From assembly GCA_029559475.1 (NCBI GenBank), contig JAKQBN010000078.1, forward strand, positions 2,986 to 66,985: a stretch of 64,000 nt of DNA. Direction: 5' to 3'. Shown piece after piece: positions 7,875-44,623 of this stretch. Positions within the stretch are counted from its first letter, which is position 1. The number at the start of each line of letters is the position of its first letter. The notes beneath the pieces are model-generated. The model made no database searches. It was given only the letters and a program-made list of their open reading frames with translations, and was not told the DNA's origin. This stretch comes from a bacterium. Its GTDB lineage: Bacteria > UBA4055. The position numbers were made by a program, and so were the translations under genes.

Positions 7875-7902
7875 CATGAATTTTTTTTATACAAAAACAA
7901 AA

Positions 7903-28340: not shown

Positions 28341-29729
28341 CTAAAAGCTTACATCAACAAGCTCGATCGGATAATCTCCGTCAAAACAAGCAAAACAGAA
28401 ATTATCATCAGTATTGTTCACGCATCTTGAAAGATCTTCCTGCTTCAGATATTTAAGAGAGTTCACTCTCAAGAATTCAGGCATATCTTCGAACTCCATC
28501 CTGTTGGCCATAAGCTCTTCTTTCGTATTAGTGTCGAGCCCGTAGAAGCATGGGAATTTTACCGGCGGAGATGCGATCCTTAAATGTATCTCAGCCACAC
28601 CGGCTTTCCAGAGCATTCCGGCTATCTTTCTCATCGTAGTGCCGCGTACGATAGAATCATCGACAAGAACTATCCTTTTGCCTTTCAAAGTAGATATGAC
28701 CGGATTGAATTTCTGTTTGACGCTTTCATCCCGACCTCTCTGATCGGGCTTAATGAAAGTTCTTCCCACATAATGATTCCTGATAAGCGACATCTCGAAC
28801 GGAATGTTCCTTGCCTGAGCATAACCGAGAGCCTGAATATTCGATGAATCGGGTACAGCCACGACTACGTCCGCTTGGAGATCCTTATCATAAGCTGCTA
28901 GAGCCTGACCCATCTTCTTTCTGGCTTCATAGACGCAGATACCGAACTGTTTACTGTCAGGCATCGAAAAATATACAGGTTCAAAAACGCAGTGAGAATG
29001 ACCCTTTCGCCCGTTCCTCATTTCCGGACAGCCGAACTTAAATCTTTCGACCTGATTATCTCCGAAAACATGAATTATCTCTCCGGGAGTGACTTCTTCG
29101 ATGTTCTCGCATCTTAGAATATCAAGACCTTTTGATTCCGATGCGAAGGCATATCCCGTTTCGGTTTTACCGAAAGAGAAGGGCCTTACCCCGTACGGAT
29201 CGCGAAATCCCCAGATCTCATTTCTGCCGATCAGAACCGTAGAGAAAGCTCCCTTAAATTTCTGCATGACCATTTTTATGCATTCTATAATGGGGATCCC
29301 CTTTACGATATGATGCCATACGATGAACCTTAACAGAAGTTCGCCGTCGTTCCCGCTGTTGAAATTGACTTTTTCCTTCTTGAGTTCATTCGTCAAAGTA
29401 GCGTAATTTGTGATGTCGCCGTTGCTTGCGAGGGCGAATATCGTTCCTTCGAGAGTTTCGATAACGTGAGGCTGAGAATTATTCACGTCGCTCGTTCCCC
29501 TTGTAGGATATCTTACATGACCTACAGCGATCCTTCCGGGAAATTCCTTCAATACCGATTCGGTAAGGTTATCCTTAACCAGACCAAGACCCCTGATCTG
29601 CTTGATCTGCATTCCGTTGCTTACAGCGAGACCGCAGCTCTCCTGCCCCCTGTTCTGGATCGCGAAAAGACCCAGCATCGCATCAAAAGCCGCGTCATCT
29701 GAATTAAATATACCTACTACTCCGCACAT
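28341..29729 (-). CDS. purF: Amidophosphoribosyltransferase
   Basis: N-terminal MCGVVGI (Cys nucleophile), the PRPP loop VLVDDSIVRGTT, and C-terminal Fe-S cysteines. Confidence 0.9.
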   Translation of the reverse strand: MCGVVGIFNSDDAAFDAMLGLFAIQNRGQESCGLAVSNGMQIKQIRGLGLVKDNLTESVLKEFPGRIAVGHVRYPTRGTSDVNNSQPHVIETLEGTIFALASNGDITNYATLTNELKKEKVNFNSGNDGELLLRFIVWHHIVKGIPIIECIKMVMQKFKGAFSTVLIGRNEIWGFRDPYGVRPFSFGKTETGYAFASESKGLDILRCENIEEVTPGEIIHVFGDNQVERFKFGCPEMRNGRKGHSHCVFEPVYFSMPDSKQFGICVYEARKKMGQALAAYDKDLQADVVVAVPDSSNIQALGYAQARNIPFEMSLIRNHYVGRTFIKPDQRGRDESVKQKFNPVISTLKGKRIVLVDDSIVRGTTMRKIAGMLWKAGVAEIHLRIASPPVKFPCFYGLDTNTKEELMANRMEFEDMPEFLRVNSLKYLKQEDLSRCVNNTDDNFCFACFDGDYPIELVDVSF

Positions 29730-29730
29730 T

Positions 29731-30213
29731 TTATTTACCTATAATTAATTTTGCCCATTCTTTAGCCATCTCGATATCCTGTTCCTTCTGATTCCTGATC
29801 GGATCTTTGAATTCGATCTTACCTACCATCTCATTTCCTGAAACAGCCTCTTCGAATTTTTCAAAGAATTTTCCGGGACCGCCTCCGTGACAGCAGAAAA
29901 GAGCGACTTTTTTATTGACAGGCTTATGATCTCTAAAAAAAGTTCTCAATGCCGGAGCGTATGTCCACGCCCATACAGGAGTGCCTATGAAAAGCAGATC
30001 GTAATTTTCAGGTTTTACATTAAAAGTCAAAAGCTCAGGTTCCGCTTTTGTCATAGCTTCTTTTCCGCCAGTAAAGTATTTCAGAAAATTATTACGCGTT
30101 ATCTCTTTAACTGGTTTAAGTTCAAGAACATCGGCTCCGATCTCCCCTGCTATTGCTTCAGCTATAAGTTTCGTGTTACCGTCAAATGAATAAAAAACCA
30201 CCAGCGTTTTCAT
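29731..30213 (-). CDS. Flavodoxin family protein
   Basis: MKTLVVFYSFDGNTKLIAEAIA FMN phosphate-binding loop. 160 aa. Confidence 0.7.
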   Translation of the reverse strand: MKTLVVFYSFDGNTKLIAEAIAGEIGADVLELKPVKEITRNNFLKYFTGGKEAMTKAEPELLTFNVKPENYDLLFIGTPVWAWTYAPALRTFFRDHKPVNKKVALFCCHGGGPGKFFEKFEEAVSGNEMVGKIEFKDPIRNQKEQDIEMAKEWAKLIIGK

Positions 30214-30303
30214 AAAATCCTCCTCAGGATCTTTTCACGTCGGAATATATAAAAACCAATAAACAATTGCTATAATAAAATTAATACTTATTACATAATA
30301 TAC

Positions 30304-30897
30304 CTATAATCTCATTGCAGAACCTGTCTTTGCAAGCTGATCAAGCATTAGTCCGAAAAGATAATAGAGCGATTCAAGAATATTTTCATCTTTAATGATC
30401 TCCGAACTTACGAAAAGCAGCTCAGCTTTTCCGTCCGGGACTTTCTTCCCGAAAGGGTCGGTTTTATCAATAATGGAAAGATATATCTTTTTTTGAGCAT
30501 TAATAAGATCTCTTATATTATCCGGAGCAAAGATCATCTGCGCCTTATTGATATCGTTGGCTTTTATAATAAAAGCATCATCGAATTCAGGATATCCTAT
30601 CACAACGTCCTGAGCTCCAAAAACTTTGGCTATATTGCTGAAAAATCCTTTGCGGTGGATAGAGAACCTGAAATTATCAAGAGGTTTAAACTCAGCGCTT
30701 ACTTTTGTAAAACAACTGTAGCTGATCGGTTTTGCAGCGGCATTTATTAACGTAAGTATCTCAAATTCGATCTGCCAATTGCCGAAAACAGCTTTTACTC
30801 TGTCGCCTTTATTGAATTCGCCGGCAGAATAATCTCCTGCGATCTTGATTGCAAAATTTCTCCATGATTCAATATTTTTCTGACCTTCCACATCCAT
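30304..30897 (-). CDS. Hypothetical protein
   Basis: 197-aa ORF with coding-like composition. No recognisable motif. Confidence 0.5.
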   Translation of the reverse strand: MDVEGQKNIESWRNFAIKIAGDYSAGEFNKGDRVKAVFGNWQIEFEILTLINAAAKPISYSCFTKVSAEFKPLDNFRFSIHRKGFFSNIAKVFGAQDVVIGYPEFDDAFIIKANDINKAQMIFAPDNIRDLINAQKKIYLSIIDKTDPFGKKVPDGKAELLFVSSEIIKDENILESLYYLFGLMLDQLAKTGSAMRL

Positions 30898-31062
30898 GAT
30901 CCACCGCCGTGTTTTATTATGAATATAATGTATAATAAGAGAAATAAGATGTCAAATAATAACTTTGACAATACGGCAGTAATAAATTAGATTTATAATG
31001 TATGGATATAAGGAAGAAATAAACGCCATGTTTCGTATATTTTCTTGAAATAGGCACAAATA

Positions 31063-31198
31063 TTCCAGCTAAACGAAACGATTCGTATAGCTTCCGCAAA
31101 CAAGCGCAAACGTCGCGGCTATACGCCATGTGGCGTATAGCCGCACGTTGAAGGACATTGCAATTTGTATTCTAAAGAAAAGACCATTGAGCCAAGTA
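31063..31198. repeat. Left copy of an imperfect inverted repeat bracketing the 31-42 kb accessory segment; contains a perfect 14+14 bp palindrome
   Basis: Reverse complement aligns by hand to 42021-42134. The block CCATTGAGCCAAGTA (31184-31198) matches TACTTGGCTCAATGG (42021-42035) 15/15. The block 31136-31168 matches 42045-42077 at about 27/33. Both copies carry GGCTATA...TATAGCC hairpins, here GCGGCTATACGCCA-tg-TGGCGTATAGCCGC at 31115-31144. Confidence 0.75.
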
Positions 31199-31371
31199 TC
31201 TTAGGTCGATTTAATGGGGTAGAAAATGAAAATAATATTCTTTGGAAAAGACCGGAAATGGGATTATCTTTCTGCAATAGGATTTAAACACTTTGAAACA
31301 AGAGTAATTTAAGCATAAGAGGAAAAGTTGGTAACACTTTACAAATCAAACCGCACATTTAGGAGATCGAT

Positions 31372-32217
31372 ATGAAAAATTTTTTAATCATTTTATTCTT
31401 CAGTATTTTATTCACTGCCACATATTCAAAGACCATTTACGGTGAATACACTTATTCTTACGGTGACGATGAAACATTGACAACGGCTAAGCAGAAATGT
31501 CAGACATTAGCTAAAAGAGATGCAGTGGAAAAGTTCGCTACATTCCTCAAAAGCGAGACTGTGTTAAGAAATTATCAGACCGAAAATGACGAAATAATCG
31601 CCAACGCCGAAGCAATGGTGACGGATGTCAAGATCATAGAAGAGAAAATAGACAAACTGAATACGAACATTTATTATAAGATCAGCGCAGAGGTTGATGA
31701 GGAAAAAATACTCGGTGTTTATGAAGCAAAAGAAAAACTAAAGCTTGAAAAAATTGAAGCCGAACGCAAGGCGCAGGAAGAAAGGATCGCGGCAGAAAGA
31801 AAAGCCGAAGCCGAGAGGATGGAAGCAGAGCGAGTAGCGCAGGAATTAAAACTCAAGGCGGATAAAGAAGCTCTTGAAGCAAAGCTTAAACACGAAAAAG
31901 AACTCGCCGCGATAGAGCAGGAAACTGAAAAAATAAAGCTTTCCCGTGAGATAAACGAAAAGGACAGAAGGTTCTGGAGAACTCAAAAATGGATAGCTCT
32001 CGGAGCTTTCGCAGGTTCAGCGGGGCTTGGGACATATTTCAATATGCAGGGATCATCAAACTACGACGATTATAAGAACGCAACTTCGACATCATCTGCC
32101 GACGATCTTTACGATAAGGCCGAAAGCAATTATTTATACAGGGATGTCACATTTTCTGTATCGATCGTACCACTCGGATATTTTTTCTACGCATGGTATA
32201 AAGAAAGCCAGTATTAA
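31372..32217 (+). CDS. Hypothetical coiled-coil membrane protein
   Basis: Signal/TM at the N-terminus. The central part is a charged E/K/A-rich coiled coil (EAERKAQEERIAAERKAEAERMEAERVAQE). Two C-terminal hydrophobic helices follow. Confidence 0.65.
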   Translation: MKNFLIILFFSILFTATYSKTIYGEYTYSYGDDETLTTAKQKCQTLAKRDAVEKFATFLKSETVLRNYQTENDEIIANAEAMVTDVKIIEEKIDKLNTNIYYKISAEVDEEKILGVYEAKEKLKLEKIEAERKAQEERIAAERKAEAERMEAERVAQELKLKADKEALEAKLKHEKELAAIEQETEKIKLSREINEKDRRFWRTQKWIALGAFAGSAGLGTYFNMQGSSNYDDYKNATSTSSADDLYDKAESNYLYRDVTFSVSIVPLGYFFYAWYKESQY

Positions 32218-32237
32218 AAGGAAACAGGAGTTATAAA

Positions 32238-35200
32238 ATGAAAAGAACAATTTATTTAATATCAGCAGCAGCGGTCTTACTTATAATCTGGACGTGCTCC
32301 GATCTTGAACATTCAAATCCGTTCGATTCCAGCTACGGCGATCCGGATCCGTTAAAAAAACTTGATCTCGTAATTGAAAAAATCGACAGGATAAAACTAG
32401 TCTGGGATGATGATTATTACAGCAAGGACTCGAACTATACTTTTATAATTGACAGGAAGATAGGCGATACTGGTGCTTGGGAAGAAGAATATAAGATATT
32501 TAAAAGCAAATACACTTCATTTACAGACTCATCGGCCGGTATTGACAAACTGAATTTTTATAGGGTTAAAGTGGCTTATGACAAGAATATTTCCGATCCG
32601 ATCGAAACATCAATACTAAACCCGTTCAATCCGCCGTCAGGGATTACTCTGAACAGAAAAGATATAAAAACAATTCAGATCAGCTGGAATGACAATTCCA
32701 ACGGAGAGGACGGTTTCAAAATTGACAGATATTCGAACGGCGCATGGGTGACAGGATTCAAAACACTTGGTCAGAACGCTGCGACATGGACAGATTCCGC
32801 TGCCGTGCTTAATGATTCTTTAAGATACAGGATCTACGGTTTCAGGAAAACCTATAATTCTCAGCAGGCTTTAACGAACCTGATAGACAATACATTACCC
32901 GCTCCGTCAAATTTAATAGTACAGCAGAATGATGTAAGCACTTTCGAACTTAACTGGACAGACAACAGCACTGGAGAACAGGGTTTTATTGTCGAAAGAA
33001 GCATTGACGGCGGTTCTTATTCCGTATTAAGCACTTTACCCGCAAATACGACATCGTATATAGACACTTCAGTCAGCAAAGGAAAAAGTTTATCTGATGT
33101 ATCTTACAGAGTTGTGTCTTATTTCGGTACATTCAAATCAGCTTATGCAGAGACTTCATCCGGAATAGAATTTCCCGCACCGGGTACGCTGTCCTATGAA
33201 AAGCTTACTATTTCATCCATTAAGCTAAACTGGGCAGATAACAGTCTTTCTGAAGATGGTTTTAAAATTGAGAAAAAAGTAGGCGGTGGTTCATGGACTG
33301 CTTATGCTACTGTAACCAAAAATACAACAACATGGACAGATGCAGCTGCCCAGATAAATCAGACAGTTCAATATAGAATTTATGCTTACAAAGGCATCAA
33401 CACTTCTACTATTACCGAAAGTTCGGTCATTGATAATACTTTCCCCGCGCCAACGGGCATTACTTTCACAAAAGTTTCGATCAGCTCAATTAAAATTGAC
33501 TGGCTCGATAATTCAACCGGAGAAGACGGTTTCAAAATTGACAGATCAGTCAACGGAACATGGACAAATTCTTATGCATCTGTAACTGGAAATATCAAAA
33601 CTTATACTGATGCTAGCACACCTATAAATTCTACTGTTATTTACCGCGTTTACGCATATAAATCAACAAGCGTCTCTGCAACAATTTCGACATCTTCGAT
33701 CGCGAACACTTTTCCGGCACCTTCAAATCCTTCGATAGTTCAGCTTGCTGTTAACTCTGTTAAAATAAGCTGGACAGATAACTCTACAGGCGAAGACGGA
33801 TTTAAAATTGACAGAAAAAATGTTTCGGGTACTTGGACAACAGCCTACGGCTCAGTAGGCTCGAACATAACCGAATGGACAGATACCGCAGCCGCTATAT
33901 CCGACAGCCTTCAATACAGAGTTTACGGTTACAAAGGAACAGCATATTCAGCTTACGCTTATACGAGAGCATCCGACCTGACATTTCCGCCGCCTACAAA
34001 TGTAACCTACACCAGACCGACAATAATTTCAATAAAATTGGACTGGGTTGACAACAGCACAGGCGAAACAGGATTTAAAATTGACCGATCGGTTGATGGC
34101 GGCGCTTGGGTTATAGCTTACGGCACTGTAAGTTCAGATGTTGTTACTTGGACTGATGCCAATGCACCGATAAATAAAAATATACAGTACAGAATTTACG
34201 GTTATACAGCCACAGACGCATCCAGTTATGCCACTTCGGCAGTAATAGCAAATACATTTCCTGCGCCTGTTCTTAATGCTGTCACTCAGCAGACTGTAAG
34301 TTCATTTAAGCTTGACTGGTCTGATAATTCCACCGGAGAAGACGGCTTTAAAATAGAAAGAAAAATTGATGCCGAAGCTTATGTTCAAATAGCTTCAGTC
34401 GGCGCAAATATTTTAACTTATACGGATTCCTCAATTAACAAAAAAGGATATACAACTGTTTACTATAGGGTCAGAGCATTTAAAGGAACCGATTATTCAA
34501 CATACAGCGAAAAAACACAGACAATATCTTTTCCGGCTCCGTCAAACATAAATTATACAAAAACAAGCATAAGTTCAATAACAGTAAACTGGTCTGATAA
34601 TTCAAACGGCGAAGACGGTTTTAAGATTGATAAAAAAGTAGGATCTTCGGAATGGGTATTAACTTATGGAACAGCAGCCGCAAACGCAGTTTCATGGCTT
34701 GATTCAAATGCGGAGCCGAACACTTCTATTCAGTATAGAGTTTATGCTTACAAAGGAAGCAATGCATCAACAGCGAATTACAGCGCGACAATTGACAACA
34801 CATTTCCTGCTCCGCTTAATATTTCAACAGAAAAGCTGACAATATCTTCGATAAAAGTAAATTGGACTGACAATTCAACAGGTGAAACCGGCTTCATAAT
34901 TGACAGAAAAGTCGGAGTTGACGCATGGGCTGCTTATGATACAACGGCAACTAATGCAGTTACCTGGACTGACAATAGCGCAGTCATAAACGCTAATCTT
35001 CAATACAGAGTAAAAGGATATAAAGGCAGCTTTTATTCTAACTATCTTGAATCTTCACAGATCAGCAATATTTTTCCTGCACCAACAAATCTGATCCTGA
35101 CTCAAGTCAAAAAACTTCAAAAAGCCGTAACCATAAGGCTTGACTGGACGGATAATTCAACCGGCGAAGACGGATTTAAGATCTACAAGAAGAACGATGT

Positions 35201-36965
35201 CGGGAACTGGAACGAAGCAGGCACGGTTGCAAGCAATATTAAAACATGGTCTGACGCTTCCGCAGTGATCAATGACAGCCTTGCTTACAGAGTAAAAGGG
35301 TATAAAGGAACTTATACTTCAAATTACACACAGGCAGATGTAAGCTCTCTCACATTTCCGCCGCCCACAAACCTGACATATACAAAACTCGACCTGAATT
35401 CAATCAGACTGAACTGGACTGATAATTCCAACATGGAAGACGGTTTCAAAATTGATAAAAAAGTCGGAGACAATGCGTGGGTAACCGCATACGCATCAAC
35501 TGCGGCAAACGCAGTAACATGGACAGACGATAACGCTGATGTCAATCAGACCTTACAGTACAGAGTTTATACATATTCAGGCAGTTTCGTATCCAATTAT
35601 GTAGAAACAACAGCAATAGACAACACATTCCCGGCACCAACAAATTTAACAACAACCCAGATCAGCATAACAAGCGCAAATATAGCTTGGAACGACAACA
35701 GCACCGGAGAAGATAAATTTGAAATAGAACGAAAACTCTCAGCCGATGCAACATATATCAAGATCGGAGAAATAACAGGCAGCGCTACAACAACAAAAGC
35801 ATACACAGACACAACAGTAGTCCCTTCAAGCACTTACGATTACAGAGTAAAAGCAGTATTCGGCACAAATTCGACAGCTTACATAACAAAAACAGGTTAC
35901 GAGAACACATTCCATGCTCCTACGAATCTTACAGCCAGTGTAGAGACTGACACTTCTATTAAGCTTGAATGGACAGACAATTCCTCTTTCGAATCTGGTT
36001 TTAAGATTGACCGTAAACTTGGAGTTACAGGCAGTTGGGAAACCGATTTTACTACACTTGGAGCTAATGTCAAAACATATACAAACACAGGACTCACAGC
36101 AGGTACAACCTACTATTATAGAGTCCGTGCATATTTTTCAACATTTTACAGTGAATATACAAACGAAGTCAATGCAATTCCAACTGTGCCTGAAGGTTTT
36201 GCCTCAATCCCTACGGGCAGTTTCGACATGGGTAGTACAACTGGTGACAGCGATGAAGCACCTGTACACAGAGTGAACATAACAAGACCGTATTACCTTG
36301 GTAAATATGAAGTTACTCAAAAAGAATGGCAGGATATAATGGGCAGTAATCCAGCGAGTAGCTTATATGGAATGGGAGAGAATTATCCAGTATATCATGT
36401 AAGTTGGTACTCAATTCTTGTCTATTGTAATAAGCGAAGTATTACTGAAGGAATTACCCCTTGCTATACGATAAGTGGTAGTACTGATCCTATCACTTGG
36501 GGGAGCATACCGACTAGTTCAAATAGTACATGGGATGCCGTTACTTGTGATTTTAATGTAAAAGGTTACAGATTGCCTTCAGAGGCTGAGTGGGAATATG
36601 CCGCTAGATATAATGACGGCAGGACATATCCTTGGGGTGAAACAGCTCCTTCAAGCACATTGTGTAATTTTGATGCTAATGTAGGAAAAACTACAATTGT
36701 CGGTGACTATTCATCAGGTATTAGTTCTCTTGGATTGTACGATTTGTCGGGCAATGTAGGTGAGTGGGTTTGGGATTGGTACGATACATATCCTATTGCT
36801 GAGCAGTCTGATCCATTGGGTATAACAAGTGGAACTTACCGAGTTGTACGCAATAGCAATTATAACAATATTGCTTTTGCAATGCGTTGTTCGTTTCGGG
36901 GACATACTAATCCATATTCTTTAATTGTAGGTGATGGGGGGTTTCGATTAGCAAGGACGAAATAG
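32238..36965 (+). CDS. Giant surface lipoprotein: about 14 tandem Fn3-like repeats plus a C-terminal FGE-sulfatase (formylglycine-generating-enzyme/C-type-lectin fold) domain
   Basis: Lipobox LLIIWTC. The signature W.DNS.GE.GF.I.R recurs about 14 times. The C-terminal roughly 250 aa carry GYRLPSEAEWEYAAR, YPWG, GNVGEWVWDWY and GFRLA, typical of the FGE-sulfatase family. Confidence 0.85.
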   Translation: MKRTIYLISAAAVLLIIWTCSDLEHSNPFDSSYGDPDPLKKLDLVIEKIDRIKLVWDDDYYSKDSNYTFIIDRKIGDTGAWEEEYKIFKSKYTSFTDSSAGIDKLNFYRVKVAYDKNISDPIETSILNPFNPPSGITLNRKDIKTIQISWNDNSNGEDGFKIDRYSNGAWVTGFKTLGQNAATWTDSAAVLNDSLRYRIYGFRKTYNSQQALTNLIDNTLPAPSNLIVQQNDVSTFELNWTDNSTGEQGFIVERSIDGGSYSVLSTLPANTTSYIDTSVSKGKSLSDVSYRVVSYFGTFKSAYAETSSGIEFPAPGTLSYEKLTISSIKLNWADNSLSEDGFKIEKKVGGGSWTAYATVTKNTTTWTDAAAQINQTVQYRIYAYKGINTSTITESSVIDNTFPAPTGITFTKVSISSIKIDWLDNSTGEDGFKIDRSVNGTWTNSYASVTGNIKTYTDASTPINSTVIYRVYAYKSTSVSATISTSSIANTFPAPSNPSIVQLAVNSVKISWTDNSTGEDGFKIDRKNVSGTWTTAYGSVGSNITEWTDTAAAISDSLQYRVYGYKGTAYSAYAYTRASDLTFPPPTNVTYTRPTIISIKLDWVDNSTGETGFKIDRSVDGGAWVIAYGTVSSDVVTWTDANAPINKNIQYRIYGYTATDASSYATSAVIANTFPAPVLNAVTQQTVSSFKLDWSDNSTGEDGFKIERKIDAEAYVQIASVGANILTYTDSSINKKGYTTVYYRVRAFKGTDYSTYSEKTQTISFPAPSNINYTKTSISSITVNWSDNSNGEDGFKIDKKVGSSEWVLTYGTAAANAVSWLDSNAEPNTSIQYRVYAYKGSNASTANYSATIDNTFPAPLNISTEKLTISSIKVNWTDNSTGETGFIIDRKVGVDAWAAYDTTATNAVTWTDNSAVINANLQYRVKGYKGSFYSNYLESSQISNIFPAPTNLILTQVKKLQKAVTIRLDWTDNSTGEDGFKIYKKNDVGNWNEAGTVASNIKTWSDASAVINDSLAYRVKGYKGTYTSNYTQADVSSLTFPPPTNLTYTKLDLNSIRLNWTDNSNMEDGFKIDKKVGDNAWVTAYASTAANAVTWTDDNADVNQTLQYRVYTYSGSFVSNYVETTAIDNTFPAPTNLTTTQISITSANIAWNDNSTGEDKFEIERKLSADATYIKIGEITGSATTTKAYTDTTVVPSSTYDYRVKAVFGTNSTAYITKTGYENTFHAPTNLTASVETDTSIKLEWTDNSSFESGFKIDRKLGVTGSWETDFTTLGANVKTYTNTGLTAGTTYYYRVRAYFSTFYSEYTNEVNAIPTVPEGFASIPTGSFDMGSTTGDSDEAPVHRVNITRPYYLGKYEVTQKEWQDIMGSNPASSLYGMGENYPVYHVSWYSILVYCNKRSITEGITPCYTISGSTDPITWGSIPTSSNSTWDAVTCDFNVKGYRLPSEAEWEYAARYNDGRTYPWGETAPSSTLCNFDANVGKTTIVGDYSSGISSLGLYDLSGNVGEWVWDWYDTYPIAEQSDPLGITSGTYRVVRNSNYNNIAFAMRCSFRGHTNPYSLIVGDGGFRLARTK
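32380..36190 (+). repeat. Tandem in-frame Fn3-like coding repeats (period about 270-300 bp, about 14 copies)
   Basis: The conserved Trp codon of the W.DNS motif recurs at 32685, 32955, 33231 and so on. The DNA-level core GATAATTC.ACCGG.GAAGACGG.TT.AA recurs with divergence between copies. Confidence 0.8.
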
Positions 36966-37001
36966 AGATTTTATAAATAATAAGAAAACAAAGGATATGT
37001 T

Positions 37002-37853
37002 ATGAAAAGGTTAACTTGTTTTATAGGAAAAGCTAAAATCTCACAAAGAGATACCCATACATATTTTGATTGGGTTTTTGATGCTGAATACAGCGATGGT
37101 GAAAAAAAAGAATTTGTTTTTGCGAAGGATTATCAGATAGGTAATATTTATTTCGAAGAACTCATGAGAAGACACTTGATTATTGCTGTAGAAGAAAAAG
37201 TCTCTCCAGAATCGAAATATCTTAAGAAGGATGTGATTAAAAGTGTTAAGAAACGCTTAAAACACATAAAAGAATTTCCCGATGGAATTGAATCAAAACC
37301 ACGGGACGATTTCTTTTTACAGTTAAATATAATAACATTCACAAAAGATTTTGTAATTTTTGATTTTGCCTTTACAGGATTTAAATATATTATCAGGAAT
37401 ATAGAGATGCCCATCGAATTGTATAATGAATTATCTGAAAGGTCATGTTTAAAATTAAGATTTAGTAAAGATTTTCAAGTTTTTATTTCACATGCTTTTG
37501 AAAATAAACCTATAGCTAAAAAAATAGCTGAGGATTTAACAAATAATGGATACCGAGCATGGTTTGATGAATGGGAGATAAAAGTTGGTGATTCGATTGT
37601 TGAAAAAATAAATGAAGGTATTAAAGACACTGCTTTTATGATTGTACTATTTTCTCGTTGTTCTGTTGAAAAATCTTGGGTAAAAAAGGAAATGAATGCC
37701 GGCTTCGTGGAGGAATTAAAAAGGAAAAAGATATATGTATTACCTGCATTAATTGAAGATTGTGATATACCGCCACTGTTTTCAGATAAACGCTATGCAG
37801 ATTTCACTGTTTCTTATGAACTTGGAATTAATGAAATTTTAAAGTCATTGTGA
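37002..37853 (+). CDS. TIR-domain protein (unknown N-terminal domain of about 160 aa plus a C-terminal TIR)
   Basis: C-terminal VFISHAFENKPIAKKIAEDL..GYRAWFDEWEIKVGDSI...AFMIVLFS..S..SWVKKEMN matches the bacterial TIR_2 pattern, including the W...E glutamate position. It starts 36 nt after the Fn3/FGE gene with AAAGGA upstream. Confidence 0.8.
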   Translation: MKRLTCFIGKAKISQRDTHTYFDWVFDAEYSDGEKKEFVFAKDYQIGNIYFEELMRRHLIIAVEEKVSPESKYLKKDVIKSVKKRLKHIKEFPDGIESKPRDDFFLQLNIITFTKDFVIFDFAFTGFKYIIRNIEMPIELYNELSERSCLKLRFSKDFQVFISHAFENKPIAKKIAEDLTNNGYRAWFDEWEIKVGDSIVEKINEGIKDTAFMIVLFSRCSVEKSWVKKEMNAGFVEELKRKKIYVLPALIEDCDIPPLFSDKRYADFTVSYELGINEILKSL

Positions 37854-37898
37854 TGATAATCTCGTTTATTAGTATTTATTTATTACACTGGATATATT

Positions 37899-38858
37899 GT
37901 GAGAAAAATGATGAAATACAATGATAAAGCAAATAACTGTGAATATTATAAAGCTACGATAAATTCATTTAATAAATACATTTTGTATTGTGAAAAAATT
38001 TTAAATGGAAAGTTTTATTCTGACAAGATGATTTGCGAAAACATTTTTAGAGAAAAGATAAATTCAAAACATAAGTTTGAGGAATATTTACATAAAAGCA
38101 TTTATATTTCAATGGATTATGTAAAATACTTAAAAGAAACTGTGAATGAAGAAAATATTCATATATATCGGCATACATTAATGTGCTTAAGGATTGATCT
38201 TGAGTGGCTAATAGCAAATTTTGAAAAATATTGGTTGAAATCGGCGGATGGAATTATATTTACAAATGAGCGTAAAAAGAATTTAAATCCATCGGAACTG
38301 TATTTTGCAGCAAAGGCATTGTTTTTTATTGAAGAAAATAAAAATATCCAAGATTTGTATTTACGAGGCTTAAAACCCGCCGCAATGTTTTATATACGGC
38401 AACTAATAGAAGTTTATGGCAGGAATATTTTAGGATATCATTCTATTGAAGATGAAAAAGGTAATCTGAAAAAGCAATTCACTCAATATGCATGGAAATT
38501 TATTAAAGAAGAACTTAAAAAGGACAACCCAAGAATCGAACTACCTTTTGATATTGATATTGTTTTGAGTATTAACAAGTGGGCTAACAGCTTCGTGCAC
38601 TCAACATATCTATACAATAGCTATATACAATTTTATGCCTTAAAAATGGTCAAGATGTTGTTTGATTCTAAAAGGAAGAAGATTAGAGTATATAATGGAC
38701 GCTTAGTAGAGAAGTCTGAATGCAGTGATATAAGGATTACAAATTATGAATCTTTAAAATCTGACTTTGAGAAAAAGTTAAAAGAGATTAGTAAAGCCGA
38801 AGTAATCGTCAACTGGATGAAAGTTGACGATGTTGGGGCTTACATTATTAGCTTATAA
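37899..38858 (+). CDS. Hypothetical helical protein with an Rx5H (HEPN-like?) motif
   Basis: 319-aa AT-rich ORF (GTG at 37899 or ATG at 37908). It contains GRNILGYH (R175..H181) and NKWANSFVHS. No family confidently recognised. Confidence 0.6.
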   Translation: MRKMMKYNDKANNCEYYKATINSFNKYILYCEKILNGKFYSDKMICENIFREKINSKHKFEEYLHKSIYISMDYVKYLKETVNEENIHIYRHTLMCLRIDLEWLIANFEKYWLKSADGIIFTNERKKNLNPSELYFAAKALFFIEENKNIQDLYLRGLKPAAMFYIRQLIEVYGRNILGYHSIEDEKGNLKKQFTQYAWKFIKEELKKDNPRIELPFDIDIVLSINKWANSFVHSTYLYNSYIQFYALKMVKMLFDSKRKKIRVYNGRLVEKSECSDIRITNYESLKSDFEKKLKEISKAEVIVNWMKVDDVGAYIISL

Positions 38859-38896
38859 CATTTAGAAATATCGATTTGACTAAAGTAGGAGTTACA

Positions 38897-39142
38897 ATGC
38901 TAAAAAAAGAATACTTAAAACACAACGGGTTTAATTTCGAAATAAGAATTAATACTATTGATGACAAACATTGTGTCATAGTGTTTATTGATGATTTTCA
39001 GGTGAGCCCGATATATTCAGTTGATATTGGATATGAAAAAGAGTATTTTAAGCAACACGAGGTTAGCTTAGTCAAACAACTTGTAGAAATGGCAAAGAAA
39101 GACATTGAAAACGATATTTTTTTTGGAGGCTGTCAAATATAA
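38897..39142 (+). CDS. Hypothetical small protein (81 aa)
   Basis: I prefer the ATG at 38897, preceded by AAAGTAGGAG, over the TTG at 38876. The stop lies 3 nt before the next gene. Confidence 0.5.
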   Translation: MLKKEYLKHNGFNFEIRINTIDDKHCVIVFIDDFQVSPIYSVDIGYEKEYFKQHEVSLVKQLVEMAKKDIENDIFFGGCQI

Positions 39143-39145
39143 AGA

Positions 39146-39958
39146 ATGTTAAAAAGAAAGAAAAACACAAAAAGAATACAGCATGCGAATTACTATAGAA
39201 TTGTCAAAGTAGTAAAATGTTTTGTAAAAACTAATTGGTTTCATATTATCGCTATTTTCTTCATTGCGTGTATGATATTCTTAAAAAATTTAACAAAAGA
39301 TTGGAGTCCAATAATAAATGTCCCTTGCGATACAATCAATTACTATTGGGATATTTTAATCAGTTTAGGAATCAGTTATACCGCAGGATTTATTTTTTAC
39401 CTATTGGTTGTATATTTTCCAGAGCAGCAAAAACGAACAAATGTGGAAACTAGCCTTAATACTTTATTTAGAACTATCCAAACTAATGCATGTAAATATT
39501 TGGATGAAACCTTCAAGGCTTTTGGGTATGAATTTCCAGCTACTACGAATTTAAAAGATACTTTTTCAAAAAACAACTTGAATAATGACCCTTTCAAAGT
39601 ACTTTCTAATTCAATAACTGAATCAGATATTTTAAATTTATATGAAAACACAAATAATAGATACGAAATAATAATTCAAACTTCTTCAAAGATATTATCA
39701 TGCAGAGATAAATTAATTCCATACATACAATACATGAATAAGGATGAATTAATTTGTTTCTCTGCTTTAGAAGATATAAGAATATTTGATCATATCTCTA
39801 ACCTACCTAAAATTGGATATTATTTTTATGATACTCTTGACGAAGTATTAGATCTTATCAAAAAGACTGAAAAAATATTAGATAGCGACTTTGAATATAT
39901 AGCTGCATATAAAAATCCAGAAAAAGAAATCTATGAAATATTAAATACACATGTATAG
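39146..39958 (+). CDS. Hypothetical 2TM membrane protein (possible pore/effector module)
   Basis: Basic N-terminus, two hydrophobic helices (WFHIIAIFFIACMIFL and ILISLGISYTAGFIFYLLVVYF), then a soluble helical tail of about 175 aa. Confidence 0.6.
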   Translation: MLKRKKNTKRIQHANYYRIVKVVKCFVKTNWFHIIAIFFIACMIFLKNLTKDWSPIINVPCDTINYYWDILISLGISYTAGFIFYLLVVYFPEQQKRTNVETSLNTLFRTIQTNACKYLDETFKAFGYEFPATTNLKDTFSKNNLNNDPFKVLSNSITESDILNLYENTNNRYEIIIQTSSKILSCRDKLIPYIQYMNKDELICFSALEDIRIFDHISNLPKIGYYFYDTLDEVLDLIKKTEKILDSDFEYIAAYKNPEKEIYEILNTHV

Positions 39959-40062
39959 GATTGTCAGAATGCCTTTAATTCTTTTATATTACTGCCGTTA
40001 TTACAATGCTGAATTATTTTTGTACGATTATCAAAATAACAACTGACTTAAAGGATAGAATT

Positions 40063-41715
40063 ATGCATATAAAGCAAATCTTAGAAAACACTCTCACTAA
40101 CCTCATCCAGACTTGGGAAAACGAGGTTATTGAGTTCAAGGAAGCGAACGATAATTTTCCGACTTCGGATATCGGGAAGTATTTTTCTGCTTTATCGAAT
40201 GAAGCTAACTTGAAGGAGAAAGAGCGTGCTTGGCTTGTGTTCGGCGTTCATAATAAAACTCGAAAGATAGTCGGTACTGATTATAGGATGGAACCGGAAA
40301 GGCTTCATAGCCTTAAAATGCAGATTTCGCAGAGAACAGAGCCGAGTGTTACTTTCCGTAATATTCACGAAGTTTACACAGACGGTTTAAGGGTGATTCT
40401 ATTTGAAATTCCTTCTGCACCGGTTGGTATTCCTATTTCGTGGAACGGACATTATTATTCTCGTTCCGGTGAGAGCTTGGTTTCTCTCGGTTTGAATAAG
40501 CTCGATGAGATCAGAAAGCAGACTGCGGCATCAGATTGGACTGCAAAGGTAGTTGATGAAGCTACGCTTGATCATCTTGACCCTGATGCTATTGAGAAGG
40601 CTCGTGAGGCTTACGGAGAAAAATATTCAAACCGCTTTTCAGAATCAGAAATAAAAAAATGGTCTTTGCCTGTTTTTCTCGACAGGGCAAGGCTGACGAT
40701 ATCGGGTAAGATCACAAGGACGACTTTGATTCTTCTCGGTAAAAAAGAATCTTCGCATTTCCTTCTTCCTTATCCGTCTCAGATCACATGGAAACTTGTT
40801 GACAAAGAAAAGGCTTACGAACATTTCGCACCGCCTTTTTTGTTGAGTACCACTGAGCTTTATCAAAAAATAAGAAATTATCAGATCAGAATTCTACCTG
40901 AAAACAGCCTGATCCCCGTTGAAGTTTCCAAATACAAACAGAAAGTAATTCTTGAAGCTCTTCATAACTGTATAGCTCATCAGGATTATACAAAGAATTC
41001 CAGAATTATCGTAACGGAGTATGTGGATAAACTTTCCTTTGAGAATGTCGGCAGTTTTTATGAGGGTAATCCTGAAGATTATATCTCCGGATCAAAAACA
41101 CCTCACAGTTATAGAAATTCATTTCTCGCTCAGGCAATGGCTGAACTAAAAATGATAGATACATTAGGCTACGGCATTCATGAAATGAATACGGAACAGG
41201 CGAAAAGATATTTCCCTCTGCCTGATTATGATCTTTCGGAGCCGGGAGTTGTCAAAGTTTCGATATACGGTAAAGTATTCGATCCTGCTTACAGCAACCT
41301 GCTCATTCAGAATCCCGAACTTGCATTAGAGGATATTATAGCTCTTGACAGAGTACAGAAAAAGCTTCCTTTGACGGATGAAATGATTAAAAGGTTGAGG
41401 TCAGCTCAGCTTATAGAAGGCCGGAAGCCGAACTTTCACATATCGTTAAAAGTAGCGAAAGTGACAGACAAGAAAGTTGACTATATAAAAACCAAAGGCT
41501 TTGATGATTCATACTGTAAAGACTTGATCCTTGAGTTCATAAAAAAGTGGGGTGAAATATCCCGCAAACAAGCTGAAGATCTTCTTTGGGATAAATTACC
41601 TGATATTTTAGATGATAAAGCTAAAAAAATAAAAGTAATGAATGTGTTACAATCACTGCGGAAAAAAGAAAAGATATTTCTCGATGAAGGGAAAAAGTGG
41701 AAAATCGTGAAGTAA
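40063..41715 (+). CDS. Schlafen/AlbA_2-domain plus HATPase_c_4-like plus wHTH protein (often mis-annotated as RecG-like; putative regulator)
   Basis: N-terminal E.EVIEFKEA...SALSNE...LVFGV is the AlbA_2 pattern. The central EALHNCIAHQDY motif is also present. I prefer the start at 40063 (MHIKQ, AAAGGA upstream). Confidence 0.7.
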   Translation: MHIKQILENTLTNLIQTWENEVIEFKEANDNFPTSDIGKYFSALSNEANLKEKERAWLVFGVHNKTRKIVGTDYRMEPERLHSLKMQISQRTEPSVTFRNIHEVYTDGLRVILFEIPSAPVGIPISWNGHYYSRSGESLVSLGLNKLDEIRKQTAASDWTAKVVDEATLDHLDPDAIEKAREAYGEKYSNRFSESEIKKWSLPVFLDRARLTISGKITRTTLILLGKKESSHFLLPYPSQITWKLVDKEKAYEHFAPPFLLSTTELYQKIRNYQIRILPENSLIPVEVSKYKQKVILEALHNCIAHQDYTKNSRIIVTEYVDKLSFENVGSFYEGNPEDYISGSKTPHSYRNSFLAQAMAELKMIDTLGYGIHEMNTEQAKRYFPLPDYDLSEPGVVKVSIYGKVFDPAYSNLLIQNPELALEDIIALDRVQKKLPLTDEMIKRLRSAQLIEGRKPNFHISLKVAKVTDKKVDYIKTKGFDDSYCKDLILEFIKKWGEISRKQAEDLLWDKLPDILDDKAKKIKVMNVLQSLRKKEKIFLDEGKKWKIVK

Positions 41716-41721
41716 AAATTT

Positions 41722-41848
41722 ATGCGAACTTTTGGTAAGTTTTTATGCGAAAATGTCACTATTTATTCGATTTTATAGCTAAAAGTGTAAAAAAGATAAT
41801 GCGAAAATAATGCGAAAATAATGCGAACTTATGAGAACCTTATGCGAA
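41722..41848 (+). repeat. Array of six perfect ATGCGAA heptamers (plus one degenerate copy)
   Basis: ATGCGAA occurs at 41722, 41745, 41799, 41810, 41821 and 41842, with ATGAGAA at 41831. Three copies are spaced exactly 11 bp apart (41799/41810/41821). Confidence 0.8.
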
Positions 41849-42020
41849 CTAATGACCTGTACGATAAAATCGTACAACTGAAGAAAGATAATCCCTATTG
41901 CAGAAAGGTTTGCAGAAAGATAATCCCATTTTGGAGATTTGGGGTTTGCCTGAGATTTACTTGTTTAAAGCTAAAAGTTTTAGCTTCTTCCTCGCAGGCT
42001 GGACTAGTTACAGATTGGGG

Positions 42021-42134
42021 TACTTGGCTCAATGGGTATGAGTAACAAATTGCAACGACCTTCAACATTGGCTATATGTCGCGGCGAGGGGAAGTTATTT
42101 GCCGCGCTTATAGCCATGACCGTTAGCTGAATCG
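42021..42134. repeat. Right copy of the inverted repeat bracketing the accessory segment
   Basis: See the left copy. It contains TACTTGGCTCAATGG, ACAAATTGCAACGACCTTCAACATTGGCTATA, the imperfect hairpin GGCTATA..CGCGGC/GCCGCG..TATAGCC (42070-42115), and CGTTAGCTGAATCG. Confidence 0.75.
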
Positions 42135-42290
42135 TTTTTTTACAAGGAATTTCATTTTCGGTATCTATGGGTCCGAAAGACCTTGATCCTCCCGTTTTTA
42201 CCTGTCATACGTGAGTCTATTGTATTCCATTTTGAATTTTGTGCGATTTGTAATTGAGTTTAATATTTTTTTTTCATACCTTACGGGTCA

Positions 42291-43190
42291 ATGAAAGAAG
42301 ATTACAAAAAATATCTCGATCCGGAATTCATCGCATCATTTTCTAACCTGAGCCTGACGACAAAAATGATCCTGAAGGGATATATGCTCGGAATCCATTC
42401 GAGCCCGATGAAGGGATTTTCCGCGGAGTTTTCCGACCGTAAACAGTACAACGACGGAGATTCCACGCGGTTCATCGATTGGAAGATTTACGGCAGAACG
42501 GAAAAATATTATTTGAAACAGTTCGAGGATGAAACGAATATCTACGCGAACATTTTCCTGGATAGATCTGCTTCTATGAATTTCAGGTCTGAGAAATTCT
42601 CTTATTCTAAACTCGACTACGGCAGACAGCTCGCTGCGGCTATTGCGACGATATTTATAAATCAGAAAGACGCTGTCGGATTCGGAAATTATGCCGATAC
42701 GCTCAAAGATTATTTACCGCAAAGATCATCAAAGCAGCATCTGAAGAACATTCTTGTGAACATCGACAGAAATGAAGTTTATCCTGCAGAAAAAACTTTT
42801 ACTTCTTTTGATGAAATAAGCAATAAACTCAGTAAATCCGGAATTCTTGTAATAATCACAGACCTGCTTGAAGAAAGCAAGAACATTATTGACAGAATAC
42901 TTACATTACAGAAAAAGCAGCAGGACATCATTGTTTTCATGATCGCTGACGACGATGAATACAGCCTCCAGCTCGGAGATCATCTTAATCTGATAGATTC
43001 AGAGACCGGAGAGAAGCTCGTTCTGAAAACGTCATTACTTAATAAAAAATATAAAGCGGTTTATGATGAACATATAAATAAATTCAGAAAAGTGTTTACT
43101 GAAAAGAAAATTTATTTTACATTTGTGACAACGAGAACGCCTTTCCATCTTCCGCTTAGAGAGATCGTTCTTGTGCGCGGTAAAAAATAA
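42291..43190 (+). CDS. DUF58 domain protein (vWA-like, usually MoxR-associated)
   Basis: G.H.S...G.S.EF...R.Y..GD..R.IDWK...R pattern ([36 protein letters not shown]) typical of DUF58. No MoxR ATPase lies adjacent. Confidence 0.75.
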
Positions 43191-43198
43191 CAGGAGAA

Positions 43199-44623
43199 AT
43201 GATGAAGAAGTACATCGACGAAAAAATACCTTACAAAGTTAAAGATATTAGCCTCGCTGATTTCGGCAGGAAAGAAATAGATATTGCGGAAAAAGAGATG
43301 CCGGGACTCATGTCGATCAGAAAAAAATATGCGCCGAAAAAACCTTTAAAAGGCGTGAGGATCACAGGATCATTGCATATGACGATACAGACAGCTGTGC
43401 TTATAGAAACTCTCGTTGATCTCGGAGCAGCTGTAAGATGGTCGAGCTGCAATATTTTCTCTACCCAGGATCACGCCGCTTCAGCCATAGCAAAGGCAGG
43501 AATTCCCGTATTCGCGTGGAAAGGAGAAACGCTGGATGAATTCTGGTGGTGTACAGCTCAGGCTTTATCGTTTCCGGGAGGTAAAGGACCTCAGCTCATA
43601 GTTGACGACGGCGGTGATGCCACTTTGATGTTCCACAAAGGTTATTTCGGCGAAAAAGATCCCGCGATTCTTAATGAAAAGTTATCAGGCGCTGACGGAA
43701 AAGCCTTATTGAGATCATTAAAACTAATTCTGGCTGAAGATAAAGATAAATGGCAGAGATGCTCAAAAGATTTGAAAGGCGTTTCTGAAGAAACCACAAC
43801 AGGAGTTCACAGGCTGTATAAAATGCACGAAAAGAAAGAGCTTTTAATTCCGGCTATAAATGTGAACGACTCGGTAACGAAATCAAAATTCGATAATCTT
43901 TACGGCTGCAGGGAATCTCTGCCGGACGGGATCAAGAGAGCGACAGACGTGATGCTCGCGGGTAAAGTTGCGGTCGTCTGCGGTTACGGCGATGTCGGAA
44001 AAGGTTCAGCGAGATCTTTAAGAAATTACGGCGCGAGAGTAATAGTCACAGAGATCGATCCCATCTGCGCTCTTCAGGCAGCTATGGAAGGTTATGAAGT
44101 GGCAACTGTCGAGGATACACTCGGCAAGGGCGACCTTTATGTTACAACTACAGGGAACAAAGACGTGATCACGCTTGATCACATGCTTAAAATGAAAGAT
44201 CAGGCTATCGTGTGCAATATCGGACATTTCGATAATGAGATACAGGTCGATAAGCTCGAAGACTGCAAATTTCTTAAGAAGAAGACAAATATTAAACCTC
44301 AGGTAGATAAATATACATTCAAAAACGGGCACGAAATATTTCTGCTGGCCGAAGGAAGACTCGTAAATCTCGGATGCGCGACAGGGCATCCTTCTTTCGT
44401 AATGAGCAACTCATTCTCCAATCAGGTTCTTGCCCAGATGGATCTTTGGAAAAACAAATATAAGACCGGCGTTTACAGGCTGTCAAAACAGGCTGATGAA
44501 GAGGTCGCGAGGCTTCATCTTGAAAAGATCGGCGTAAAACTTACAAAATTAACAAAAGAACAGGCTGATTATATCGGAGTTAAGCAGGATGGACCTTATA
44601 AAGCCGAACATTACAGATACTAA
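43199..44623 (+). CDS. ahcY: Adenosylhomocysteinase
   Basis: [37 protein letters not shown], and the NAD motif GYGDVGKG. 474 aa. Confidence 0.92.

Follow-up and report, generated by a model that had tools for sequence, protein, structure and literature searches.

A seven-gene block between inverted repeats in Candidatus Delongbacteria is a probable cassette of an integron-like recombination system

The DNA examined here is a stretch of 64,000 nucleotides (nt; the window) from contig JAKQBN010000078.1 of assembly GCA_029559475.1, which we found to be 100% identical to a metagenome-assembled genome of Candidatus Delongbacteria (GCA_035431505.1) and to contigs of two activated-sludge data sets. 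An earlier note, made from the letters alone, had described imperfect inverted repeats around a segment of seven accessory genes, which it placed at 31063-42134, and had considered ends of a mobile element, sites for a recombinase or invertase encoded elsewhere, or two oppositely inserted copies of a miniature inverted-repeat transposable element (MITE) as explanations. Alignment with an empty site now sets the mobile unit at 31150-42124 (+ strand; 10,975 base pairs (bp)), and we argue that this unit is probably a single gene cassette belonging to a site-specific recombination system of integron-like type in Candidatus Delongbacteria, the inverted repeats being presumably the two halves of one hairpin recombination site that integration has split.

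The block, its repeats and its empty site

The block holds seven open reading frames (ORFs), all of them on the + strand, as previously reported. Gene 1 (31372-32217, +; 281 amino acids (aa)) has no family match, and its homologues head related modules in locus L019; gene 2 (32238-36965, +; 1575 aa) encodes FN3-like repeats (PF00041) followed by a C-terminal FGE-sulfatase domain of the C-type-lectin fold (PF03781); gene 3 (37002-37853, +; 283 aa) encodes a TIR-domain protein (TIR_2, 3e-28; PADLOC PDC-S66, 1.8e-24); genes 4-6 (37899-39958, +; 319, 88 and 270 aa) again have no family match; and gene 7 (40006-41715, +; 569 aa) encodes a Schlafen/AlbA_2-type ATPase (HATPase_c_4, with SLFN_AlbA_2 matched on homologues). 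The left flank consists of purF and a flavodoxin gene and the right flank of DUF58 and ahcY, and the proposal that these flanks are core is borne out by a related genome in which flavodoxin adjoins DUF58.

The inverted repeats are real, every block of the original description being present. A repeat finder returned a 15/15 identical inverted block (31184-31198 against 42021-42035) and a 22-nt block of 91% identity (31147-31168 against 42045-42066), which extends in BLAST to a local alignment of 63 columns (74.6% identity, E 8e-5). When the left region was reverse-complemented and aligned with the right, the Smith-Waterman score was 46, compared with 21.7 +/- 2.6 and a maximum of 33 in 300 shuffles, so that the similarity, first seen by hand alignment, lies above chance. 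Further inward, the repeat finder gave a perfect 22-nt inverted pair that the earlier note had not listed (31256-31277 and 41910-41931; BLAST E 1.5e-6), overlapped by two shorter pairs, and with this inner pair included the arms span about 31147-31286 and 41879-42124. A BLAST search of the arms against the 64-kb window gave no additional copy.

On the left (+ strand), the arm consists of a 5' stem half at 31147-31168, made up of GTTGAAGG (8 nt), an ACA bubble and TTGCAATTTGT (11 nt) and complementary to 42045-42066; the B' block CCATTGAGCCAAGTA at 31184-31198, found by the repeat finder, which forms part of the extended stem of a 'B-type' cassette subfamily; and the A' block at 31256-31286, the outermost stem half, which pairs perfectly over 22 nt with 41910-41931, sits in a conserved region upstream of gene 1 and is partly kept in L019. 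The right arm (+ strand) contains the A block at 41879-41931 (repeat finder and sequence), within which GAAAGATAATCCC is duplicated; the B block TACTTGGCTCAATGG at 42021-42035, again from the repeat finder; and a 3' stem half at 42045-42066 (+), in which ACAAATTGCAA, a CGA bubble and CCTTCAAC make up the inverse-core side, with YAAC at its end. The two arms differ in length by 32 nt because the GAAAGATAATCCC duplication (41882-41931) and a small perfect hairpin, AAAGCTAAAAGTTTTAGCTT (41968-41986), lack counterparts on the left.

Both hairpins that had been pointed out are present, namely a perfect 14+2+14 palindrome on the left (31115-31144) and a GGCTATA...TATAGCC hairpin on the right (42070-42115). 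The internal direct repeat of the left copy exists as well, as a 20-mer in three copies at exact 50-nt spacing (31020, 31070 and 31120) and not in the two copies first described. A block CGTT(T)AGCTG(G)AAT occurs at 31063-31076 and 42121-42134; this E/E' pair changes from the window to the sister strain described below with no compensating change and, with some uncertainty, is more likely a resemblance between half-sites than a true stem of the left site. Two other accounts of the arms were discarded: a coding role was rejected, the conserved 22-mer lying in different frames on the two sides, and a sigma-70 or Bacteroidetes-type promoter in the C block (the stem halves at 31147-31168 and 42045-42066) was dropped for unconvincing spacing.

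A sister strain, whose DUF58 protein falls in the window's 90%-identity cluster and whose flanking DNA is about 95-98% identical to the window, lacks the insert: its loci (L009-L016) carry the 197-aa gene that precedes the block in the window, the left hairpin, ACGTT|AGCTGAATCG and DUF58. At base level this empty allele reads ...GCGGCTACACGCCAGATGGCGTTTAGCCGC-ACGTT|AGCTGAATCG..., and aligned to it the window's left junction reads ...CCGC-ACGTT|GAAGGACATTGC... and its right junction ...TATAGCC-ATGACCGTT|AGCTGAATCG.... The inserted DNA defined by this alignment (31150-42124, +) starts with GAAGG, has no internal sites and lies between two copies of CGTT. In a wastewater metagenome of 2023 (X10), contigs join 31145 straight to 42121, so that the comparison with relatives recommended by the earlier note does reveal empty sites, in L009-L016 and in X10. 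Moreover, contig L018, from the sister lineage, matches the empty alleles at 100% identity for 2350 nt and changes to the cassette 5' end exactly after ACGTT; set against L009/L010, it places filled and empty states on one genetic background.

The polymorphism between empty and filled alleles is precise at CGTT, and the view of the segment as accessory and mobile is upheld by these alleles. The left hairpin and the CGTT..AGCTG..AAT block lie outside the mobile DNA because both are found in the empty site, and the latter, once counted as part of the element, is flanking DNA; the right hairpin arrived with the insert.

In X1 and X2, the window's own metagenomes, joints from 31150 to 42138 and from 31201 to 42020 were also seen, at depths near that of the genome. 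The former differs from the allelic empty junction at 42125, and the latter sets the B' block against the B block, making an arms-only unit; both are probably paralogous sites or minimal cassettes. To the right of the insert, about 120 nt of variable DNA (42125-42245, +), opening with the 'AGCTGAAT' block, precede the resumption of homology upstream of DUF58. The stretch 42106-42176, which comprises the R' half and the next ~50 nt, recurs at the start of an unrelated 8-kb X1 contig, and the residual 120 nt may be the start of another cassette type.

A family of hairpin sites and their complementary cassette ends

The attC sites of integrons are imperfect palindromes that run from an inverse core with AAC at its end to a core that opens with GTT, and they have R and L boxes as well as a variable centre (PMC3053210). 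The window contains one canonical attC-like site, 71 nt in length (42059-42129, +), with the layout CCTTCAAC-ATT-GGCTATA..stem-loop..TATAGCC-ATGACC-GTT|AGCTG. It scores 61.2 bits (E 2.7e-15) against covariance model R1 with filters off, the next best match in the window reaching 11 bits, and 46.9 bits with an nhmmer profile. Since this is the only canonical site in the window and none lies inside the block, the 10,975-bp block is a single unit.

When species-representative genomes were scanned for exact matches to the B and C blocks, eight were obtained on six contigs, mostly from Delongbacteria, and these loci share the conserved unit (cassette-specific bases)-YAAC-ATT-GG[C/A]WAWA..stem-loop..TTWTWKCC-ATGACC-GTT|R. 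A scan with the pattern AACATT..N30-46..CCATGACCGTT, which fixes AAC, GTT and the spacers ATT and ATGACC, recovered at least 119 metagenome contigs with at least 246 strict sites. These sites are arranged in same-strand arrays: among the matches listed, they lie on a single strand in 125 of 126 locus-strands, with a median spacing of 1.14 kb (range 339-7184 nt), and two contigs bear six sites each (L026 within 17.6 kb and L096 in 5.9 kb). The sole contig with sites on both strands among the ~125 listed is L100 (51-113, +, and 2706-2768, -). Sites and cassettes of the Delongbacteria type are also found on contigs labelled Bacteroidales (JAVEZW010000057.1; L022/L026) and Clostridiales (DMMZ01000058.1; L023), labels that may reflect either mis-binning or real transfer between phyla.

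The window site and at least 234 non-redundant sites of the family are imperfect palindromes bounded by AAC in the inverse core and GTT in the core, as the definition of attC has it. The L stem (GGCU/AGCC) is 98-100% paired. In attC the integrase recognises two extrahelical bases of the folded bottom strand; in the present family, one subfamily has a conserved C/T mismatch in its L stem. The core of a site measures 69-75 nt, the form with its cognate extended stem about 110 nt, and the window's B-type form about 365 nt; relative to an attC length of 57-141 bp, the first two fall within and the last outside. RNAalifold applied to array-form sites pairs CAT with ATG and not AAC with GTT; that model was used for searching only, and the structure was taken from reconstructed circle junctions.

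The ends of each cassette turned out to be complementary to one another. For 120 units whose two ends were both available, drawn from the matches listed, we set the 30 nt that begin at the GTT of the upstream site against the 30 nt that run up to the AAC of the unit's own site, and found a mean unbroken complementary run from GTT of 8.1 nt in cognate ends (8-10 nt in 101 of the 120), as against 4.15 nt in abutting non-cognate ends and 4.10 nt in random pairs. The matches out of 30 numbered 18.2, 12.0 and 11.7, respectively. Throughout these cassettes the architecture is constant, with 8 paired nucleotides, a 3-4-nt bubble and about 9-11 paired nucleotides, and the sequences are cassette-specific; the window's C block, GTTGAAGG-ACA-TTGCAATTTGT against ACAAATTGCAA-CGA-CCTTCAAC, is one case of this 8 + bubble + ~11 rule. 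The complementarity also covaries: over 116 reconstructed junctions, the five variable inner-stem pairs are 92-98% paired with 3-5 pair types and the outer-stem pairs 66-86% paired with 4-6 pair types, the three AAC/GTT pairs being 100% paired by construction.

When the window's own two ends were joined in silico, they folded into one hairpin with A-A', B-B' and C-C' paired (-77.2 kcal/mol, against -38.1 +/- 4.1 in shuffles; z = -9.5). Seven complete B-bracketed cassettes were found, of 0.9, 0.9, 3.9, 4.8, 6.6, 7.2 and 10.98 kb, and in L020 a right end abuts a left end with a single CGTT, between RhuM and NOV_C genes, which amounts to two cassettes in tandem. A DDE_Tnp_1 transposase gene (L020 396-1703, -) adjoins these tandem cassettes on their Delongbacteria contig.

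The left site, a linked recombinase and competing explanations

To the left of the cassette lie three core-type palindromes phased at 50 nt. The first (AAATAAACG-CCATGTTT-CGTATATTT) is at 31017-31042, the second (AGCTAAACG-AAACGATT-CGTATAGCT), whose left arm is the left copy of the CGTT(T)AGCTG(G)AAT block, at 31067-31092, and the third belongs to a chromosomal short-type site (31115-31149, +; GC-GGCTATACG-CCATGTGG-CGTATAGCC-GC, then ACGTT), which is also present in the empty allele and within whose CGTT, at 31146-31149, the crossover falls. Sequence comparison makes 31115-31149 homologous to the DNA directly after the stop codon of a recombinase gene in L148, L149, L150, L151-L154, L053 and L070, and 31070-31149 aligns with sequences 3' of recombinase genes. 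At ten loci, which fall into three types, one to three palindromes (TACGCC..GGCGTA or ACGAAACGATTCGT types) come after the stop codon, the last of them embedded in ...CCGC/CCAG-ACGTT| about 35-140 nt past the stop. The window's palindromes use both motif types, and the ACGAAACGATTCGT motif of its second palindrome also follows the recombinase gene in L053; L151 and L153 are identical up to ACGTT and diverge right after it. Because of this homology to a site that follows an array-heading recombinase gene, we read the left hairpin as an attI-like site. Such sites also occur without a recombinase gene, as in the window itself, in the sister strain and within the L068 array.

The array-heading recombinase, a protein of 277 aa, was picked out by scanning the retrieved loci with an approximate IntI1 sequence used only as a probe, which returned two 278-aa ORFs adjoining sites. 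It has PF13495 and PF00589 domains, scores 217 bits with TIGR02249 (cut-off 265, in two stretches), 216 with XerA (cut-off 220) and about 188 with XerC/XerD, and its best solved relative is XerA (4a8e; 149 bits in one stretch). Delongbacteria genomes have annotated homologues at 73-86% identity, and longer relatives in other phyla add an N-terminal extension only. In L148, L070, L053 and L153 the gene lies after core genes and is followed by the palindromes with ACGTT| and then by site arrays, and L150, L151, L152 and L154 end in or shortly after the ACGTT site. The sites 3' of the recombinase in L148, on the same strand, are at 11676, 12618, 13620 and 20210, and its cassettes code for an acetyltransferase, a zeta toxin, a Big_7/FGE-sulfatase protein together with a PDDEXK nuclease, DUF2971 and RhuM. 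The recombinase occurs in two conserved settings, after PASTA and a 527-aa gene (L148/L070) and after ribosomal genes and UvrD (L053/L151-L154), with enzymes 76-82% identical to the query recombinase in both, which suggests two platforms per genome or per lineage.

We propose that in a free circular cassette the two ends would abut and form a long imperfect palindrome, A-B-C-YAAC-ATT-hairpin-ATGACC-GTT-C'-B'-A', which as a single strand would fold into a hairpin. A tyrosine recombinase would cut beside GTT and join the cassette to a chromosomal partner ending in ...ACGTT, in the window the short palindromic site at 31115-31149. Integration would thereby open the palindrome at GTT, with C'-B'-A' becoming the 5' end of the cassette and the proximal half with the hairpin its 3' end, and this opening of the stem would account for the repeats that bracket the block. 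The circle or tandem junction is predicted to read ...CCATGACCGTTGAAGGACATTGC... / ...TATAGCCATGACCGTTGAAGGACATTGCAATTTGT... and the empty site ...GCCGCACGTTAGCTGAATCG..., and the recombinase would act from a gene outside the 64-kb window. The 277-aa Xer-like protein is presumably the enzyme and would be present in this genome, its substrate is probably folded single-stranded DNA, and a circular intermediate is likely to exist. The exact cut would lie between G and TT, a point at which allele breaks within CGTT do not resolve the phosphodiester bond; the CGTT break points and the complementarity of the 120 cassettes agree with a crossover in the G|TT region in which each 5' end completes its cassette's own core. 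The evidence for cassette movement consists of the natural presence/absence alleles and the L020 tandem junction.

Like the cassettes of integrons, above all sedentary chromosomal ones such as the repeats of Vibrio cholerae (VCRs), those described here end in promoter-distal imperfect palindromes between ..AAC and GTT... A crossover at G|TT fits the data, and it is the cassette's 5' end that contributes the distal portion of the core. The sites resemble attC in their R-type and L-type stems, unpaired spacer and variable apex, and the same-strand arrays of ~1-kb cassettes, with site sequences homogeneous within a lineage, resemble chromosomal integrons. As in integrons, where attI adjoins the integrase gene (PMC9668308) and receives the first cassette, an attI-like site stands beside a gene for a tyrosine recombinase with PF13495 and PF00589 in the relatives, and the cargo is rich in defence-type genes (PMC3053210, PMC4889954, 10.1101/2024.07.02.601686). 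Unlike in integrons, the recombinase gene is directed toward the array, with the site placed after its stop codon, and a cognate stem of 8 + ~11 bp is found in all cassettes, growing to ~170 nt per side in the B-type subfamily. The constancy of the spacers ATT and ATGACC, compared with integrons, reflects the search pattern by which they were fixed.

Several observations weigh against an integron-like cassette. Integron integrases carry an IntI-specific domain near patch III (intI_Cterm/alpha-I2; PMC4889954, PMC9668308), and this region is reported to enable single-strand recombination (PMC7790495). The array-linked Delongbacteria recombinase differs from them in having no such insertion: residues 206-242 of the VchIntIA chain (2a3v), which hold alpha-I2 and the beta-4,5 contacts to extrahelical bases (residues from PMC3053210), find no match in it and the alignment splits, and an alignment to an approximate IntI1 sequence, which serves as a lead only, shows the same gap of ~44 aa. 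The single-strand step is uncertain for this reason. No tyrosine recombinase was found in the 64-kb window by phmmer with the approximate IntI1 sequence or by tblastn with four array-linked recombinases (none below E = 0.6), in line with the earlier note, which had seen no integrase, transposase or invertase in the segment; the window's attI-like site has no adjacent recombinase gene, and the sister strain's island contains no recombinase remnant. Of the 7-nt integron cores only YAAC and GTTR are kept (in 98% and 97% of the at least 234 sites, RYYYAAC occurring in 0.9% and GTTRRRY in 1.7%), and the 100% conservation of AAC and GTT follows by construction from the search pattern. The window holds a single cassette and no array, in contrast to the tandem same-strand arrays of its relatives, and at 11 kb and seven genes this cassette is about five times as long as the '~2 kb largest known' (PMC4889954). 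Finally, the circular junction is seen only as a reconstruction, the alleles do not fix the direction of gain versus loss, and the extended pairing is possible only in the circle and not between array neighbours, leaving its role in excision unexplained.

Clusters of attC sites lacking an integron integrase (CALINs) comprise, by definition, at least two such sites in a span of 4 kb (PMC4889954), and the origins published for them include rearrangement and the action of an integrase whose gene lies elsewhere (PMC8618304, PMC4889954). The window's cassette is like a CALIN or an off-target insertion in lying, with its attC-like site, away from any integrase gene, and unlike a CALIN in that the 64-kb window has one canonical site. 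It also differs from insertion at a secondary site, since the partner is no random GNT site and has a full attI-like architecture with three phased palindromes.

Among the alternatives, the one that fares best, although we regard it as improbable, is an integrative module of Xer/dif type (like pdif or integrative mobile elements exploiting Xer recombination (IMEX)), in which the enzyme would serve the host in resolving chromosome dimers and the short palindrome would be dif-like, with the blocks as elements that exploit this site and stand in tandem like CTX and TLC. Such modules have a dif-like core of 28-31 bp, exchange strands in its 6-8-bp centre and use a housekeeping Xer; CTX phage has a folded attP, and CTX and TLC pile up in tandem at dif. 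The left site does have the classic core-site geometry (9-11-nt arms, 8-nt spacer), the best solved relative of the recombinase is XerA, the XerC and XerD models score about 188 bits, and the recombinase gene directly adjoins the putative site, as it does in single-recombinase Xer systems. Resistance modules flanked by Xer sites are known, and the IMEX and Acinetobacter pdif systems share an Xer-family recombinase, a hairpin-forming attachment site and tandem accumulation with the present one (PMC7399989). The position of the crossover argues otherwise, for it maps to ACGTT, beyond the palindrome by 2-5 nt, instead of centrally in the 8-nt spacer. In addition, the short site occurs at three or more kinds of locus (PASTA-linked, UvrD-linked and the window's), where dif would be unique, and many sites per genome, with hundreds of ~1-kb one-gene cassettes in long arrays with covarying stems, are unlike known IMEX. 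This alternative shares most of its mechanism with the integron-like reading.

It is very unlikely that two independent MITE-like or repetitive extragenic palindromic (REP)-like copies in opposite orientation surround an unrelated island by coincidence. The arms do resemble MITEs, REPs and bacterial interspersed mosaic elements (BIMEs) in being short, structured, multi-copy intergenic repeats that break short-read assemblies: in metagenome contigs on the window region the depth is 2-7 fold higher over both arms, with many unrelated flanks, and the Logan contigs of the window strain break there. The B block has 29 further copies elsewhere, each of which stands either 39-40 nt 5' of a same-strand site or 45-47 nt 3' of an opposite-strand site, oriented as a 5' or 3' end of a cassette is predicted to be. 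The earlier note had held that occurrence at many unrelated sites would mark a generic dispersed repeat; the arms are indeed multi-copy, and because every copy keeps a fixed distance from a boundary site, this dispersal supports a role as cassette ends instead. Its suggestion of two oppositely inserted MITE-like copies gives way on the same grounds, the copies being locked to cassette ends and the two 'terminal repeats' representing one site split by integration. Seven complete cassettes are bracketed alike, and in the empty allele the two arms are missing along with the island, with breaks at the arm ends.

Slightly less probable again is a cut-and-paste or composite transposon with terminal inverted repeats of ~140-230 nt and a 4-bp CGTT duplication, mobilised in trans. 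Inverted repeats at the ends, a CGTT direct repeat around the insert and a DDE transposase gene near the L020 cassettes would all suit it. The ends are asymmetric, however: the repeat begins at base 1 on the left and lies 58 nt inside the end on the right, where an extra 58-nt hairpin stands outside it, so that terminal repeats of transposon type, as proposed earlier, do not describe them. Nor is CGTT an arbitrary target, as it is part of a conserved site on both partners; the units stand head-to-tail on one strand and share a single GTT, and cassette-specific end complementarity would be needless for a transposase that recognises fixed ends.

A phase-variable segment flipped by an invertase, which the co-oriented gene block between inverted repeats might recall, is scarcely credible, as no strand-switching joint occurs among the joints listed from four metagenomes on 29500-43500 (rare forms can escape contigs), related cassettes all keep one orientation relative to the sites, and no invertase gene lies nearby; of the earlier idea of sites for an enzyme encoded elsewhere, the recombinase half stands, with no recombinase in the window, and the invertase half falls.

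Beyond the assignment of 31150-42124 as an integron-like cassette, there is roughly an even chance that a distinct integron-like system operates in Delongbacteria and perhaps in neighbouring lineages (recombinases 55-60% identical), one that combines a compact Xer-type enzyme without the alpha-I2 insertion (never acquired or lost) with folded hairpin sites bearing an extended, cassette-specific stem, and that can move defence-type blocks of several genes, up to 11 kb in size, with satellite attI-like sites that have no recombinase gene beside them among the targets. Our literature search found no report linking Delongbacteria with integrons and none joining integron, attC and Marinimicrobia, and the phylum list of a review of integron distribution is without Delongbacteria (PMC8618304). 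Published finders require an IntI-specific profile and cluster sites within 4 kb, the largest cassettes then known being about 2 kb (PMC4889954), and standard integron finders would not call this system an integron because of these two requirements; its arrays may already be catalogued as clusters of attC sites. If the integron-like reading is true, integrons extend to the candidate lineage Delongbacteria, hairpin-site arrays stand behind a recombinase without the IntI-specific helix, whose role in single-strand recombination would need revising, and so would the ~2 kb limit on cassette size, with one unit holding seven genes in 11 kb. Defence cassettes are described as streamlined under a size constraint (PMC4889954; 10.1101/2024.07.02.601686). 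The signature YAAC-ATT...ATGACC-GTTR retrieves hundreds of cassettes from wastewater and digester metagenomes, and a natural empty/filled pair is available for experiments.

Cargo genes and the flavodoxin-DUF58 interval

Judging from its content, which varies among related genomes, the interval between flavodoxin and DUF58 (window 30214-42290) is a hotspot for accessory DNA. It measures 131 bp in one related genome (L005/L006), holds a type I restriction-modification system with Abi_C and DUF1016 in L004, and holds a ParE/YoeB-Phd toxin-antitoxin pair, HEPN/NTase pairs and a zeta-toxin-like gene in L007; the arms and hairpin sites were sought in these variants and none was found. In the window the variable region runs from ~30285 to ~42245 and is wider than the repeat-bracketed block. 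It includes the 197-aa gene (30304-30897, -), which has no assigned function, lies outside the cassette and is present in the empty allele.

A module like that of the window (31372-41715) recurs in L019 (10001-18903), L026 (448-6812) and L148 (13888-20039), with variable small genes beside a giant Big_7/FN3 + FGE-sulfatase protein and either a Schlafen/AlbA_2 ATPase or PDDEXK, DUF2971 and RhuM. It is found in large 'B-type' cassettes, and in L019 it adjoins dnaA with no recognisable sites; an inverted repeat was sought around the L019 module and none was found, only the left inner part being conserved. The combination of an FGE-sulfatase giant with a Schlafen-type ATPase, with or without a TIR protein, is a candidate multi-gene defence or conflict system, and as such would be an uncharacterised one.

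Most of the gene 2 protein is made up of about 13 tandem fibronectin-III-like repeats (window 32650-36050), each of 270-282 nt (~91 aa) and at 60-80% identity, which the repeat finder returned as families of 273 nt. Over 45 nt of its FGE-sulfatase domain (window 36563-36608) the contig depth rises to ~300-460 in X1 and X2, compared with 12-20 nearby, and many contigs end on both sides of this stretch, which is a motif of very wide distribution or else a repeat in its own right. A search with Rfam at gathering thresholds gave no match at the arms and identified two tRNA-Pro genes in the window, which lie side by side at 7687-7762 and 7800-7875 (anticodons CGG and GGG).

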